64,000 nt of DNA from the UHGV virus genome UHGV-1370948; one strand, written 5' to 3'. The notes below the pieces were generated by a model that saw only the letters and a program-made list of their open reading frames with translations, was not told the DNA's origin and made no database searches. The position numbers and the translations under genes are program-made. The DNA is from a virus. Below, piece by piece: positions 17,013 through 27,322 of the stretch (position 1 is its first letter; each line of letters opens with the position of its first letter).

Positions 17013-17078
17013 TTTGTGGACACACACAAAGAAAAGAGACTAAATTAGCTCTAAATTTAGCACTATTTAGAGGTGATT

Positions 17079-17330
17079 ATGTTTACTGAAACTGTTCTAG
17101 CCAAGCACACATCTTCCATTAGCGAGTTTAAAAAGAACCCTTCTGCCGCTATGAGCGAGTCTAATGGCGAGCCTGTGGCTGTACTTAGCCACAATAAACC
17201 TGCTTTTTACTGCGTCCCACCAGCACTGTTTGCTCTTATGATCGACCATATTGGCGACCAGATGCTTCTTGAGAAGGCCGTGGGTAGGCTGGACGATGAA
17301 GAGGTTGAAGTCAGCCTGGATCAGCTGTAA
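17079..17330 (+). CDS. Phd/YefM-family antitoxin-like protein (orphan)
   Basis: 84 aa; followed by a 12-codon ATGA-overlapped stub (17329..17367) where a toxin gene would normally sit. Confidence 0.45.
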   Translation: MFTETVLAKHTSSISEFKKNPSAAMSESNGEPVAVLSHNKPAFYCVPPALFALMIDHIGDQMLLEKAVGRLDDEEVEVSLDQL

Positions 17331-17484
17331 TGAGTAGTGGTTTCAAGGTAAAAATCATCAATGATTAACAGTCGACTCTATAGTTCTCACAATGTCCGCA
17401 TAATCGTAATATACTAATCCTGTTAGTGATTTAATCTACCTACCAAACCGTGGGCAACACATTCTATTAATCAGGAAAACGCAG

Positions 17485-19041
17485 ATGACCAGCCTGCAAC
17501 AACGCGCCGAATTACACCGTCAGATATGGGCTATTGCGAACGAGGTTCGCGGTGCCGTTGACGGATGGGACTTTAAACAATACGTCTTAGGGGCGCTGTT
17601 TTACCGTTTTATCAGTGAGAACTTCACCAGTTACATCGAAGCCGGTGATGACAGTGTTCAGTATGCCGGAATGGCTGACAGTGATATTGGTGATGAGATT
17701 AAGGACGATGCGGTCAGAACAAAGGGGTATTTTATCGCTCCAAGCCAGCTGTTCTGTAATGTGGCGAAGCGTGCCAATACGAATGACCACCTGAATGCTG
17801 ATTTAAACAGTATCTTTGTTGCGATTGAAAGCTCTGCATCCGGTTATCCGTCAGAAGCCGCCATTAAGGGACTGTTTGCTGATTTTGATACGACCAGTAA
17901 CCGGCTGGGCAGTACCGTTAAAGAGAAAAATATCCGGCTTGCTGCGGTACTGAAAGGGGTTGAGGGGCTGGCTCTCGGGGATTTTGATGCCCATCAGATT
18001 GACCTGTTCGGTGATGCCTATGAGTTTCTGATATCCAATTATGCCGCCAATGCGGGTAAGTCCGGCGGTGAGTTCTTTACCCCGCAGCATGTCTCTAAGC
18101 TGATTGCTCAGCTGGCCATGCACGGACAGACCTCCGTCAATAAAATCTATGACCCTGCGGCCGGTTCAGGTTCTCTGCTGCTTCAGGCCAAGAAACACTT
18201 TGATAATCACATTATCGAGGACGGTTTCTTTGGTCAGGAGATTAACCATACGACCTTTAACCTGGCGCGTATGAATATGTTCCTGCACAACATCAACTAC
18301 GACAAGTTTGATATCCGGTTAGGGAACACATTACTGGCCCCTGAATTTAAAGACCAGAAGCCGTTTGATGCGATTGTGTCTAACCCGCCGTACTCCGTGA
18401 AATGGGTGGGCAGTGATGACCCGACCCTGATTAACGATGACCGCTTTGCACCTGCGGGGGTACTGGCCCCGAAATCTAAAGCTGACTTTGCATTCGTACT
18501 TCACGCCCTGAATTACCTGTCTGCGAAAGGCCGTGCCGCGATTGTCTGTTTCCCCGGCATTTTCTACCGTGGCGGAGCTGAGCAGAAAATCCGACAGTAT
18601 CTGGTTGATAACAACTATGTGGAAACCGTGATATCACTGGCCCCGAACCTGTTCTTCGGTACCACCATTGAGGTTAATATTCTGGTGCTGTCAAAGCATA
18701 AGGCCGACACCAAAGTACAGTTTATCGATGCCAGCAGTCTGTTTAAGAAAGAGACCAACAACAACGTTCTTACCGATGCCCATATAGAACAGATTATGGC
18801 GGTGTTCGACAGTAAAGCCGATGCAGACTATCTGGCTAAATCTGTTACTGCTGAAGCCATTGCAGCTAATGATTACAACCTGTCTGTCAGTAGCTACGTG
18901 GAAGCCAAAGATACCCGCGAAATCGTCAACATAGCCGAACTGAATGCTGAGCTGAAAAAGACCGTCACCAGAATAGACCAGCTTCGTACTGATATTGATG
19001 CGATTGTTGCTGAGATTGAAGGTAGCGAGGTACAGGCATGA
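17485..19041 (+). CDS. hsdM: type I restriction-modification methyltransferase subunit HsdM
   Basis: N6-adenine MTase motif IV VSNPPYS, AdoMet motif [10 protein letters not shown]. Confidence 0.9.
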
Positions 19042-20255
19042 GCGAGCTGAGTTATCTGGAAAAACTGCTGGATGGGGCTGAGGTTGAATGGTTACCTCTT
19101 GACGAGATAATAGAATTAAAACGTGGGAAAAGATTAGTCAGGAGTCAGCTTGCGTTAGAGGGGAAGTATGCTGTATACCAGAATAGCATGACCCCTTTGG
19201 GGTATTATCACGAATGCAACACGAATCCTGAGATGGTTTTTGTTATTTGTGCAGGGGCTGCCGGTGAGGTGGGTTATAGCATTAATCCTATTTGGGCTGC
19301 GGATGATGTCTATTATGTTGCTTCATCAGGGAAATTAAATAACAAGTTTTTGTATCACTTTTTGCTAACGCAAAGAACCAAAATTTTATCACAAGTACGC
19401 AGGGCTAGTATTCCTCGACTATCAAAATCATCGATAGATAATATAGTCATCCCCATCCCTTGCCCCAACAACCCTGAAAAATCGCTGGCAATCCAGTCAG
19501 AAATCGTCAGGATTCTGGATAAATTTACCGCCCTTACCGCTGAGCTTACCGCTGAGCTTACCGCTGAGCTTACCGCTCGCAAAAAACAGTACAGCTACTA
19601 TCGTGACCAGTTGCTGAGTTTTGAGGAGGGTGAGGTTGAGTGGAAGACTTTGGATGAAGTATCGAAAAAAATTTCTTCAGGTGGGACACCCAAAACTGGA
19701 GTAGCAGAGTATTACGATGGTGATATTCCTTGGTTACGAACGCAAGAAGTAAACTTTCGTGAAATATGGGATACAGGTGTGAAAATAACTGCATCAGGAG
19801 TTAAAAACTCCAGTGCAAAAATGATTCCGGTGAATTGTGTAATCATTGCAATGTATGGGGCAACTGTTGGGAAAATTGGTATTAATAAAATACCTATGAC
19901 AACAAACCAGGCATGTGCAAACATAAGTATCAATGAAAAAATTGCGAACTATCGCTATGTATTTCATTACTTAACAAGCAAATACGAATATATTAAGTCA
20001 TTAGGCTCTGGCTCACAGACTAACATAAATGCTCAGATTGTTAAGGGGCTGAAAATTCCACTCCCATACCCATCTGACCCTGAACAATCCTTAGCCGAAC
20101 AAGCCAGAATCGTCGCTATATTGGATAAGTTCGATGCACTAACCGGCTCCATTACTGAAGGCTTACCCCGTGAAATCGAGCTTCGCCAACAACAGTACGA
20201 ATACTACCGTGACTTGCTGTTCAGCTTTCCAAAACCTGAATCCGTAACTAACTGA
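19038..20255 (+). CDS. hsdS: type I R-M specificity subunit HsdS (type IC-like, TAEL repeats in central conserved region)
   Basis: Two TRDs around central [28 protein letters not shown] and C-terminal [12 protein letters not shown] repeats; ATGA coupling to hsdM. Confidence 0.85.
19527..19580 (+). repeat. 12-bp tandem repeat CTTACCGCTGAG x3 perfect + 1 degenerate (encodes TAEL repeats)
   Basis: Read directly from sequence. Confidence 0.9.
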
Positions 20256-25372: not shown

Positions 25373-25374
25373 AC

Positions 25375-26421
25375 ATGGAGGCGGCGATGTTAAATTCGTT
25401 CGAGATCGATAAAGCTTTGGAAAATTGTTCTGCTGAAACAGTTCAATATCTCCAGCGCTGCCAAACCATGACCGGCTCACAAATGATGGCCATGGATGCC
25501 GATTCGAAATTCAGTGAAGCCTTTATGTTTTTCACGCGTTTATCACTCCTTGTGACTCGGCGGCGTCCTGAGCTGGGTGTTCACTGCATTCTCATTCACG
25601 CCATGCCGGTTATCGGCGACAAAAAAGTTTCGGACATCAACCGCCTCACAGTTAACAGACTAATTAATGCCTTGGTGTTGGATGGCAAGTTAGTACAAAG
25701 CCGGCGCGTTTTTTCTGTTTTAAAACAGTTCCTTGGGTGGTGTGAGTTCCAGGGCGTGATCGAGACTTCCCCACTTGGAGCGATGTCTCTTAACAAAGTT
25801 GCTGGCGGACTGAAGCCAAGACCTCGGGAGCGTGTGTTGTCGGATGATGAGCTGGAAAAATTTTGGCACATGTGGGACTTTGCCGATGTTTCAGAGAGCA
25901 CGCGTTGGGCCGCGCGTTTCGTGCTCTGCTCAGCCAGACGGCCGGATGAAGTGCTCCGGGCTAAACGAGCTGAATTCGATCTCAATAATGATGTATGGAA
26001 TCAGGGTAGTAGGAATAAGTCTGGTCGTGAACATTCACTACCCATTAGCCCCATAATGAAGCTGTGCATTAATAAAATGATGGCCGCAGCCGGGAATAGC
26101 GAGTGGCTAGTTCCCTCCCCAAAGAATGAGACGAAGCCTGCATCCAAGGTTCTGATAGCTCAGGCATCAAGAAGAATTATGAGTAGAGATTATCTTTCCG
26201 ATAACATCCCGGCCCCCTTCGAAATCAGAGATTTACGAAGAACGGCCAGAAGCACACTCTCTCGACTTGGTGTAGAGCAAGACGTGGCTCGTAAAATCAT
26301 GAACCACAGTCTTGAGGGAATAGATCGCGTCTATGACAGACACGACTATCTTGACCGAATGTCCGAGGCAATGTCAGCATACTCTGAATTCTTAATTGAA
26401 ACATGTAAGATCAATCAGTAA
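25375..26421 (+). CDS. int: tyrosine site-specific recombinase/integrase
   Basis: C-terminal catalytic R..HxxR..Y pattern (RDLRRTARSTL..HS..Y). Confidence 0.8.
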   Translation: MEAAMLNSFEIDKALENCSAETVQYLQRCQTMTGSQMMAMDADSKFSEAFMFFTRLSLLVTRRRPELGVHCILIHAMPVIGDKKVSDINRLTVNRLINALVLDGKLVQSRRVFSVLKQFLGWCEFQGVIETSPLGAMSLNKVAGGLKPRPRERVLSDDELEKFWHMWDFADVSESTRWAARFVLCSARRPDEVLRAKRAEFDLNNDVWNQGSRNKSGREHSLPISPIMKLCINKMMAAAGNSEWLVPSPKNETKPASKVLIAQASRRIMSRDYLSDNIPAPFEIRDLRRTARSTLSRLGVEQDVARKIMNHSLEGIDRVYDRHDYLDRMSEAMSAYSEFLIETCKINQ

Positions 26422-26716
26422 TACCTAACTTACTCTTCAGAGCATCATTTTCATTCTTTATTTTTTTAACAAATTCATAGATTTCGGGGAATCTCTCGGA
26501 TAAGTACATCATCATAAAATCGTCTGGCGGCGCACCAACAGCTCTCGCGAATGGGATGACCTTGTCTAACGAAAGATGAGCACGGCCAGATTTGATGAGA
26601 GAAATGTTGTTAGCGTTCTCAAATCCAACTTCTTTTGCAATCTGAGCTTGTGTTTTGCCACAGGTGAGCATCGCTGCGGTCATAAACGGACGGTAACGCC
26701 CTTTGGGTTCGTACAT
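26411..26716 (-). CDS. XRE/Cro-type helix-turn-helix regulator
   Basis: QAQIAKEVGFENANNISLIKSG HTH; convergent with and overlapping integrase 3' end. Confidence 0.55.
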   Translation of the reverse strand: MYEPKGRYRPFMTAAMLTCGKTQAQIAKEVGFENANNISLIKSGRAHLSLDKVIPFARAVGAPPDDFMMMYLSERFPEIYEFVKKIKNENDALKSKLGITD

Positions 26717-27322
26717 GTTATAGTCTGCCTTGTATTGAATTATTTTAGTAAGTAAGTAACCACATACTATTAAATCATTTTAGTAAGTAATCACATATTT
26801 ACGTATTGTTCAAGACTAAACCACTAAACCAAAAATGTAAACCCACACCGCCAACTTTGGGCTACGGCGCTAAATAACCACAAAATAGAATAAAAATCAA
26901 TAGGCTAAGTCTGCTTTTTTGATGCAAATTTGTTGTAATCTTAAAAAAATAATAGTAACTTTGACATGAATCATTTAAGACATACTAATAAGCAATAAAC
27001 TATTTAATGGTATTAACATGAATGCAATTTTGAACTGGATGTCGACGGCGACAAAACTATCAGCAATATCTTTGAGTGACCAAATCGGAGCCGACATCAT
27101 TTGCGAACTGGGCGCGAAAGATGGACACATAGCAGGCTCCGATGATCTTTTTTTCCATATTAATCATCTAGATAAAGATTTCGCTTTAGTACAGGGAATT
27201 TCGAACTACACTCTCATTTGCATTCACACCAACTAAGATTTACCCTTCCTTTTTGGCTTTATACTTTCATTGATTGTGATTATCATACCCATAAATAATA
27301 AGCATTTATTTATGGGTATGTC

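Follow-up and report, generated by a model that had tools for sequence, protein, structure and literature searches.

The virus genome UHGV-1370948 was analysed in a stretch of 64,000 nucleotides (one strand, 5′ to 3′; hereafter the window), with emphasis on positions 17013–27320. This region is very probably a variable cargo slot, filled by a toxin–antitoxin (TA) operon, a type IC restriction–modification (R-M) cassette (hsdMSR) lying within the toxin gene relE, and an orf175–yafO gene pair, next to the conserved int backbone of a Klebsiella phage-plasmid. The slot occupies positions 17016–25249, from the terminator of the glutaredoxin gene (grx) to about 20 bp short of a conserved 33-bp palindrome upstream of the tyrosine recombinase gene int, while positions 25250–27322, which contain int, a convergent helix-turn-helix (HTH) gene and an AT-rich region, are backbone and lie outside the island. 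The features are listed in Table 1, and related loci are given by working numbers (L001, L002 and so on).

Both edges of the slot are defined by the point at which related plasmids cease or resume to align. Backbone homology stops at 17015–17022 in blastn comparisons with seven related plasmids (breakpoints in L002, L003 and L004), and restarts at 25248–25258 in relatives with unrelated cargo (L002, L003 and L007), while L004 (FF979) lacks only 17016–23929 relative to the window. Among the 83 loci having both grx and the int-proximal palindrome, 27 have an empty slot, with 82 bp between the two; the interval otherwise measures 0.8–8.3 kb and falls into 28 further sequence clusters, giving 29 contents in all. 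A first-pass annotation of this DNA, which had treated 17013–27320 as one accessory island, was thus exact on the left boundary at the grx terminator and right that accessory, horizontally acquired DNA is present, as related elements exist without it and it starts directly after the terminator; its proposed check, whether the flanks adjoin elsewhere, is answered by the 27 empty loci. However, its right boundary at 27320 is 2 kb too far, since homology to cargo-free relatives has resumed by 25258.

The tyrosine integrase and the convergent XRE-type HTH regulator of the earlier description are both present, but they contradict its statement that the region holds no phage core functions: int, the HTH gene, the AT-rich region and cobT occur in conserved order in every relative examined, whatever the cargo and also where the slot is empty. 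The same synteny is found in the E. coli phage Cyrano, the Klebsiella phage pJN2-26, Klebsiella sp. PO552 p2 (L006) and Citrobacter plasmids, where the Int identity is 57–69%; the lowest Int identity among all relatives is 56%. Within the slot the modules reassort. The series phd–[hsdMSR]–relE remnant–orf3 is followed by orf175–yafO in the window, L001 and L013, and is joined instead to an unrelated minus-strand gene pair in L014, while orf3 alone occurs with either second module in L004 and L002.

The composition check suggested earlier is borne out for the hsd cassette only. Its tetranucleotide signature is foreign, with an L1 distance to the backbone of 0.218, compared with 0.122 ± 0.022 in equally long segments of the backbone (none of 300 as extreme), while the TA modules and the int–HTH segment are backbone-like, and neither GC content nor GC skew marks the island boundaries. 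At 17013, 25250 and 27320 no att-like repeats, direct or inverted, were found beyond chance, in agreement with the earlier failure to see flanking att direct repeats by eye, and additional copies of the palindrome arm within 17016–25249 are limited to chance-level matches with 2–3 mismatches. A second variable stretch lies upstream of grx (14770–16267; phoH and a Tad2-like gene). The gene directly upstream of grx (15725–16270) encodes a Tad2-like (Thoeris anti-defence 2) domain (PF11195, E = 5e-26). The stretch is replaced in some relatives, among them L003, and in L005 it gives way to YebF and a lipid II-degrading bacteriocin.

Table 1. Features of the cargo slot and the adjoining backbone in the window
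Feature	Coordinates	Strand	Evidence and remarks
grxA intrinsic terminator	16987–17012	+	Terminator scan; left edge of the variable slot
Phd/YefM-family antitoxin gene (phd), intact	17079–17330	+	PF02604, phrog_2268; 88% identical to the antitoxin of the intact phd–relE pair in L006
relE 5′ stub	17330–17353	+	First 8 codons (MSSGFKVK); alignment with L092 (intact relE, 109 amino acids)
Type IC R-M cassette	17354–23668	+	6,315 bp; Pfam, PADLOC, EcoR124 matches, L092 junctions, tetranucleotide signature
hsdM	17485–19041	+	518 amino acids; Pfam N6_Mtase and HsdM_N; PADLOC MTase_I
hsdS	19038–20255	+	405 amino acids; two Methylase_S stretches; PADLOC Specificity_I; three TAEL repeats
hsdR	20381–23503	+	1040 amino acids; HSDR_N, SWI2_SNF2/ResIII, T1R_D3 and EcoR124_C; PADLOC REase_I
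Right terminal inverted repeat of the hsd cassette	23575–23668	+	Ends ...AATGCACA, flush with the relE remainder
relE 3′ remnant	23669–23889	+	About codon 32 to stop; 80% identical to residues 32–105 of L006 (PO552) RelE; L092 alignment
orf3	23876–24202	+	phrog_24748, E = 4e-37; overlaps the relE stop codon
orf175	24286–24810	+	Overlaps yafO by 10 nt; N-terminus signal-peptide-like (judged by eye)
YafO-family toxin gene (yafO)	24801–25217	+	PF13957, E = 2.4e-16
Perfect 13-7-13 palindrome	25270–25302	.	TGTGATTCCATAC-CTATAGA-GTATGGAATCACA; on the backbone side of the slot's right edge; candidate Int core site
Putative int promoter	25326–25372	+	TTGACC, 17 nt, TTAAAT; hexamers by eye, not found by the scan tool
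LexA/SOS box	25353–25372	+	TACTGTATATACATACAGTT
Tyrosine recombinase gene (int)	25387–26421	+	PF00589; backbone gene; all-helical N-terminal part and catalytic domain
HTH (XRE-like) regulator gene	26411–26716	-	Convergent with int, overlaps its end by 11 bp; backbone
AT-rich divergent regulatory region	26717–27017	.	AGTAAGTAA(Y)CACATA direct repeats at 26747–26800 and 26871–26887 (repeat finder)
Small open reading frame (ORF), 72 amino acids	27018–27236	+	Position kept between the HTH gene and cobT
Perfect 15-7-15 palindrome	27284–27320	.	CATACCCATAAATAA-N7-TTATTTATGGGTATG; abuts the cobT start codon; conserved in L005 and L007
CobT-like VWA protein gene	27323–29311	+	PF06213 and PF11775; opens the replication-associated cobT / AAA_5 / DnaE block; backbone, syntenic in all relatives

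The window belongs to the SSU5-like (pKpn-type) Klebsiella phage-plasmids. A 17-kb stretch around the region is 99.6% identical to pKqq_SB1124_3 from Klebsiella quasipneumoniae (L001), and about 25 further non-mobilisable Klebsiella plasmids of about 110 kb, all of rep_cluster_2469, share 86–96% identity with the same stretch, while phage records, including Salmonella phage SSU5 and Klebsiella phage-plasmids, give matches to short pieces only. The left flank encodes a DnaB-like helicase, a primase, an ATP-dependent ligase, two tRNAs, PhoH, a Tad2-like protein and glutaredoxin, and the right flank encodes CobT-like, AAA_5 and DnaE proteins; the stretch is the early/replication arm of a Klebsiella-type phage-plasmid of the SSU5 supercommunity (PMC7969092, PMC12977533). 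According to the passages cited here, tyrosine recombinases are among the persistent genes of this supercommunity and TA and R-M systems among its shell genes (Pfeifer et al. 2021, PMC7969092), and for p2 of K. pneumoniae Kp1604, an SSU5-like plasmid bearing an R-M system, a lowering of phage plaquing and of plasmid uptake is reported (PMC8969562). The window is alike in element type and host genus, and in having R-M and TA genes as variable cargo beside a persistent recombinase, and a defence phenotype is on record for a plasmid of this kind. The cited passages of the two papers make no mention of the exact slot, the nested relE insertion, the inverted repeats of the cassette, or the int palindrome with its LexA box.

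The R-M cassette is complete, as the first-pass annotation had stated, with hsdM, hsdS and hsdR all full length by Pfam and PADLOC, and belongs to type IC. HsdR aligns end to end with the HsdR of EcoR124 (2w00_A; residues 1–1040, 1915 bits), and HsdS matches the EcoR124 S subunit (7bst_A; E = 5e-85), where the conserved ends and centre align and the central TAEL repeat is present. As in the type IC systems EcoR124I/II of plasmid R124, the gene order is hsdM–hsdS, a gap and hsdR, HsdR includes the EcoR124_C domain, and HsdS has conserved N-terminal, central and C-terminal regions. However, both target-recognition domains of HsdS differ from those of EcoR124, so that the recognition sequence is different, and HsdS has three TAEL units instead of the two in the solved EcoR124 S chain; the window system, moreover, sits on a phage-plasmid and has lost its left terminal repeat. 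The same hsd module is found on many IncN, IncFII and other plasmids (83–93% identity), and PO552 p2 carries it at another site of a related phage-plasmid.

We infer that hsdMSR probably serves as an active module of defence and addiction. With all three subunit genes intact, both the plasmid and the host chromosome should become methylated and incoming DNA that lacks the modification should be cleaved, which would shield the lysogen against rival phages and plasmids and exert post-segregational pressure as well. The specificity could shift through swaps of the HsdS target-recognition domains and through the number of TAEL repeats. The window and L001, otherwise 99.6% identical, differ by a swapped second recognition domain of HsdS, seen as an unaligned block at 19641–20108; the TAEL repeats are encoded by three tandem 12-nt units at 19533–19577, and HsdS measures 399, 401, 405 or 415 amino acids among relatives. 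Such variation in HsdS points to a rapid switching of specificity.

The insertion of the cassette into relE is resolved by L092, an IMG/VR contig with a 99% identical Int, which represents the empty-site allele with intact phd–relE–orf3–orf175–yafO and a RelE of 109 amino acids. The window matches L092 through 17353 and then again from 23669, so that a block of 6,315 bp (17354–23668) replaces 70 bp of relE, corresponding to codons 9–31. The junctions contain 3–5 nt of microhomology, no duplication and no att repeats. The spacing of 154 bp between phd and hsdM recurs in the hsd-bearing relatives examined (L001, L013 and L014), and the junction sequences of L013 and L014 are identical to those of the window; we infer a single ancestral insertion, which would later have spread by recombination between phage-plasmids.

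The right end of the cassette is a terminal inverted repeat, and the same end is found in five other plasmid contexts (L006, L008, L009, L130 and L131), where the matching left repeat is also present. In these contexts imperfect inverted repeats, about 90 bp long, lie on both sides of the hsd operon (at 3665–3749 and 10109–10190 in L008); they start with TG(C/T)GTAAT, end with ...TACACA and contain about three internal 20-bp repeats each. Direct repeats lie flush with the cassette ends in four of the five contexts (CTAAT, GAAAT, GGGAGG and GGTATGG), while L006 has none. The window cassette has the right repeat only, the left repeat plus 14 nt being missing. The terminal repeat is detectable in 106 PLSDB plasmids, and on other plasmids the cassette often adjoins serine-resolvase genes.

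The cassette is comparable with mobile insertion cassettes and with elements having Tn7/Mu/Tn5053-type ends, as it shares terminal inverted repeats of about 90 bp, 5′-TG...CA-3′ termini, internal repeats of about 20 bp, flanking duplications of 5–7 bp on other plasmids and often adjacent resolvase genes; it differs in the absence of a transposase within it or found linked to it, in the inconstant length of the duplications and in the one-ended copy of the window. No transposase lies between the repeats in the contexts inspected, and a search through the inverted repeat for a transposase-bearing autonomous relative found none in the hit list of 106 plasmids. One repeat match without hsd genes (L132, an IncHI2 plasmid) was inspected and is an IS26-flanked fragment with no cognate transposase. 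The repeat sequence is not known to resemble any transposon end, and a literature search for an hsd cassette bounded by inverted repeats returned nothing relevant, which is weak evidence of novelty. The simplest history would be an insertion followed by a deletion, in which the cassette, bounded by its inverted repeats, most likely entered relE by a transposition-like event, and a later deletion of about 180 bp would have taken out the left repeat together with 70 bp of relE, fixing the cassette in place and killing the toxin.

The Phd-like antitoxin reported earlier is intact, and the start codon of relE overlaps its stop codon. The supposed HigB-like toxin, in contrast, is the 3′ two-thirds of relE cut off by the hsd cassette: the RelE/ParE-like ORF at 23599–23889 contains the remnant, which matches positions 36–87 of the 88-position phrog_1213 profile, and the gene is split at codon 8 and continues at about codon 32 after 6.3 kb, with codons 9–31 lost. 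An intact toxin gene directly after the antitoxin is present in L092 and L006 and absent in the window, where the antitoxin is predicted to be an orphan with no working toxin partner. The locus is similar to Phd/YefM–RelE/ParE type II modules in its upstream antitoxin, the stop/start overlap and the family-level matches of both genes, but differs in the split toxin gene and the orphan antitoxin left behind.

Of the two secreted or unknown proteins described earlier, orf3 and orf175 indeed match no family of known function, while the yafO gene had been overlooked. Orf3 is present in most slot variants (L002, L004, L006, L007, L014 and L092). Orf175 and yafO form a conserved two-gene module, found together in many related loci with identities of 31–100% and 45–98%, respectively; the match of YafO to the NCBIfam YafO model is under the cut-off of that model. 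The yafO gene is translationally coupled to the upstream gene for the 175-residue orf175 protein, and the pair departs from the classical YafN–YafO layout. No YafN (Phd-family) antitoxin gene is found upstream of yafO, orf175 has no match in Pfam, NCBIfam, PHROGs or PADLOC, and PADLOC gives no match for any TA or unfamiliar protein of the slot.

The recombinase gene int, with its true start probably at 25387 after GGAGG, encodes a protein in which the catalytic residues R189, K215, R288 and Y320 are invariant among 77 homologues and H311 is nearly so. An AlphaFold2 model of Int (predicted local distance difference test score 91.8) suggests an all-helical N-terminal part of 130 residues, a core-binding and catalytic fold like that of lambda Int and no beta arm-binding domain, and its best folds are lambda Int (75–356), Tn1549 Int and XerH, with Foldseek E values of 3e-7 for lambda Int versus about 1e-2 for Cre. 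A phmmer search of Int against PDB sequences gave nothing at E ≤ 1, and hence no detectable sequence similarity to Cre, while the arm-binding domain PF13356 (Arm-DNA-bind_3) occurs in more distant homologues (30–37% identity) and not in the family of the window Int.

The palindrome lies 70 bp upstream of the int start codon and 24 bp upstream of the putative −35 hexamer. Its arms (GATTCCATAC) are invariant in all relatives, while the 7-bp spacer differs and is seen in either orientation within lineages. Searching IMG/VR with the arms gave 111 contigs, and an int homologue adjoins the site in 111 of 111 wherever the stored flank allows. With up to 3 mismatches to the 20-nt LexA consensus allowed, the LexA box is the sole match in the 64 kb, where 0 are expected by chance, and its form CTGT-N8-ACAG is kept in L001–L005, L007, Cyrano and pJN2-26. 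The E. coli counterpart of grx–int–HTH occurs at 261 places in 252 of 5,426 complete E. coli genomes, all of them on plasmids and none chromosomal, a count that rests on these E. coli genomes, with Klebsiella chromosomes outside the search. A listing of places for one Int homologue contains plasmids of about 106 kb only and none of the 0.2–1 Mb contigs, and a scan of genome contigs with the Int protein returned one distant, irrelevant locus.

The linkage of palindrome and int, the LexA box, the armless fold, the catalytic residues, the plasmid-only copies in E. coli and a separate operator type of the HTH protein (see below) together tilt the balance, though not far, towards an Int that acts on the adjacent palindrome in plasmid multimer resolution, genome cyclisation or both. 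Systems of this kind combine a competent recombinase lacking an arm-binding domain with a short inverted-repeat site (spacer of 6–8 bp) co-inherited with the gene, and all of these are found here. By analogy with Cre/loxP of P1 or ResD/rfsF of F, the putatively LexA-controlled recombinase would resolve multimers and/or circularise infecting DNA at the palindrome. The window is similar to Cre/loxP, ResD/rfsF and Xer/cer in having an armless two-domain recombinase on a phage-plasmid with an adjacent perfect inverted repeat, an asymmetric 7-bp spacer, and an element never found integrated in the E. coli genomes. It differs from Cre/loxP in the absence of sequence similarity to Cre, in a fold nearer to lambda Int, Tn1549 Int and XerH, in the 13-7-13 instead of 13-8-13 arrangement, and in the LexA box and extra single half-sites.

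The spacer at 25283–25289 is the exact reverse complement in close relatives (CTATAGA and TCTATAG; CTATTAA and TTAATAG; compared in L002, L005, L028, L063, L065 and L125), and thus inverts repeatedly within lineages, which template switching or recombinase action could cause. As hairpins commonly mutate by inversion of the loop through template switching, spacer inversion was rejected as proof of recombinase action. The palindrome was also considered as an intrinsic terminator, which was rejected as no T-run follows it on either strand. Exact single copies of the arm (GATTCCATAC) recur across all relatives at conserved places, next to the tRNA genes, within int and, in some relatives, near dnaE. 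The number of exact copies expected per 64 kb is about 0.1. In the window they are located at 13940–13952 (the full 13-mer, 14 nt after tRNA-Gln) and 25993–26005 (minus strand, inside int), and elsewhere at 2715, 3727 and 11921 of L011 and at 928 and 12121 of L012.

Three other explanations can be considered for the region and its recombinase. That 17013–27320 is a single accessory island moved by its own integrase, or that the integrase inserts the whole phage into a chromosome, as had been suggested earlier, is very improbable. A recombinase with intact catalytic residues at one end of accessory DNA, related to P4-type integrases and adjoined by a palindromic core-like site, would suit such an island, but int, the HTH gene and the spacer region accompany every relative whatever the cargo and have the composition of the backbone, no att-like repeats exist at 17013 or 27320, and no additional arm copy within 17016–25249 rises above chance. 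The hsd junctions with L092 show microhomology and a 70-bp target deletion, which speaks against movement by the integrase, and the absence of chromosomal copies among the 261 E. coli occurrences speaks against integration of the whole phage. A second idea is an integron-like capture platform, where an SOS-induced recombinase inserts foreign circles at the palindrome, which would account for the many cargos directly to its left; int has a LexA box, and integron integrases are likewise under LexA control. The variable DNA abuts the palindrome exactly in E. coli relatives (query position 1171 = L011 5870) and lies within 12–22 bp of it in Klebsiella relatives, the slot has 29 contents, and the spacer varies and is inverted within lineages. 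This idea is nevertheless improbable, as the second (hybrid) site expected beyond each cargo was not found, the shuffling of sub-modules fits homologous exchange between conserved flanks, the only junction-resolved insertion (hsd) is 1.6 kb from the palindrome and not site-specific, and a terminator fixes the left edge, which is the usual case for phage morons. The Int homologues have PF00589 and PF22022 only, with no integron-integrase Pfam signature of the IntI type, and no repeated recombination sites lie between the cargo modules, so that the LexA box is the sole trait shared with integrons.

The palindrome may instead be an operator through which a transcription factor governs int or the cargo, or may belong to a replication origin, with the substrate of the recombinase located elsewhere. 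This is possible, although doubtful. Operators bound by dimers just as typically have conserved half-sites around a free spacer, the recognition helix of the HTH protein is as conserved as the palindrome arms, the single arm copies at other conserved positions suggest a factor with many sites, and the site is in the neighbourhood of replication genes. On the other hand, the HTH gene has another candidate operator (GGTAAGTACTTACC-type) at its own start, for which reason the palindrome was judged less likely to be the HTH operator, and the palindrome is 24 bp upstream of the putative −35 and not over the promoter. An inverted-repeat site next to a tyrosine recombinase gene, as in loxP/cre, rfsF/resD and lambda COC′, is the classic layout of simple recombination or resolution systems, which the 13-7-13 site with its 7-bp spacer directly upstream of the recombinase gene follows, and its strict linkage to int in the 111 contigs also argues against an operator or origin.

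Several points weigh against the preferred reading of a cargo slot with an hsd cassette in relE beside a resolution or cyclisation recombinase. The single copies of the 10-bp arm motif (13943 and 25993; near dnaE in L011 and L012) are not explained by a simple lox-like model, the palindrome could be an operator, an origin element or another protein-binding site, and the recombinase is nearer to lambda/P4-type integrases than to Cre in both sequence and fold. Some Int homologues are on uninspected contigs of 0.2–0.9 Mb, and occasional integration may thus take place. The transposon view of the hsd cassette lacks a transposase, with flanking repeats of 5, 5, 6 and 7 bp and one context without any, and a single illegitimate recombination with 3–5 nt of microhomology would give identical junctions, insertion followed by deletion being the most economical account. 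The secreted appearance of orf175 also implies that the pair with yafO may not be a classical TA system.

The HTH protein is annotated as 'putative repressor' in phage Cyrano, and its helix region (KTQAQIAKEVGF.NANN.SLIKSG) is conserved across lineages. The AGTAAGTAA(Y)CACATA direct repeats upstream are candidate operators of this protein, while GGTAAGTACTTACC-type palindromes occupy the same position in L011 and L012; the protein thus seems to have its own operator type, GGTAAGTACTTACC, distinct from the int palindrome. The 600-bp AT-rich spacer described earlier (26717–27322) does have a low GC content (0.33) and direct repeats, but its regulatory part is about 300 bp, and it also contains the 72-residue ORF and a 15-7-15 palindrome. 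ORFs of the same size are annotated at the same place in L013, Cyrano, pJN2-26 and L006, with weak sequence identity (16–21%) in distant lineages. The palindrome at 27284–27320 covers the ribosome-binding region of cobT and may act in the control of translation or transcription.

This family of phage-plasmids is common in clinical Klebsiella, E. coli and Salmonella, and what the lysogen gains depends on the cargo. The cited passages of PMC7969092 already present R-M and TA genes as variable cargo and tyrosine recombinases as persistent in the supercommunity, and the sequence is near-identical to an annotated public plasmid. The new detail comprises the exact slot, a nested and apparently now immobile R-M cassette that inactivates relE and has transposon-like ends, and a conserved module of palindrome, LexA box and armless recombinase. 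The cargo is placed in a single slot bounded by the grx terminator and the int palindrome, with the second variable slot directly upstream, and the tempting but wrong inference that an integrase beside cargo must have brought it in is removed. The cassette provides a concrete case of traffic in defence genes between conjugative plasmids and phages, in which the toxin gene that was hit was destroyed. The lox-like site and its putatively SOS-regulated recombinase might serve as a new and useful pair for site-specific recombination, and two further leads are the R-M cassette with transposon-like ends and the swaps of HsdS target-recognition domains between plasmids of 99.6% identity.

It is possible, although less likely than not, that at least one of two undescribed arrangements is true: the armless SOS recombinase and its palindrome may form a cargo-capture platform similar to an integron without attC, or the hsdMSR cassette may be a non-autonomous transposon. 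If true, the former would generate at least 29 contents next to the site in SSU5-like phage-plasmids, and in the latter case trans-mobilised repeats of about 90 bp would explain the spread of type I R-M systems among IncN, IncF and phage-plasmid replicons.

Some further observations concern the flanks. DnaE (DNA polymerase III alpha) is encoded by two ORFs in different frames (30838–33210, 790 amino acids; 33221–34441, 406 amino acids), while in relatives it is a single protein of about 1172 amino acids (L127), and the split in the window may be a frameshift, a pseudogene or a sequencing error. A non-coding element of about 55 bp (14013–14071), upstream of orf203 and with no annotated feature, is 90–96% identical in SSU5 and many Salmonella, Enterobacter, Citrobacter and E. 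coli phage-plasmids, in which the DNA around it is diverged. An Rfam search identified a tRNA and nothing else. Two tRNA genes, Phe-GAA (ARAGORN only) and Gln-CTG, are located at 13733–13926, upstream of the plasticity zone, and the tRNA set at this place varies, with Asn, Thr and Ser in Cyrano and Asn in pJN2-26.

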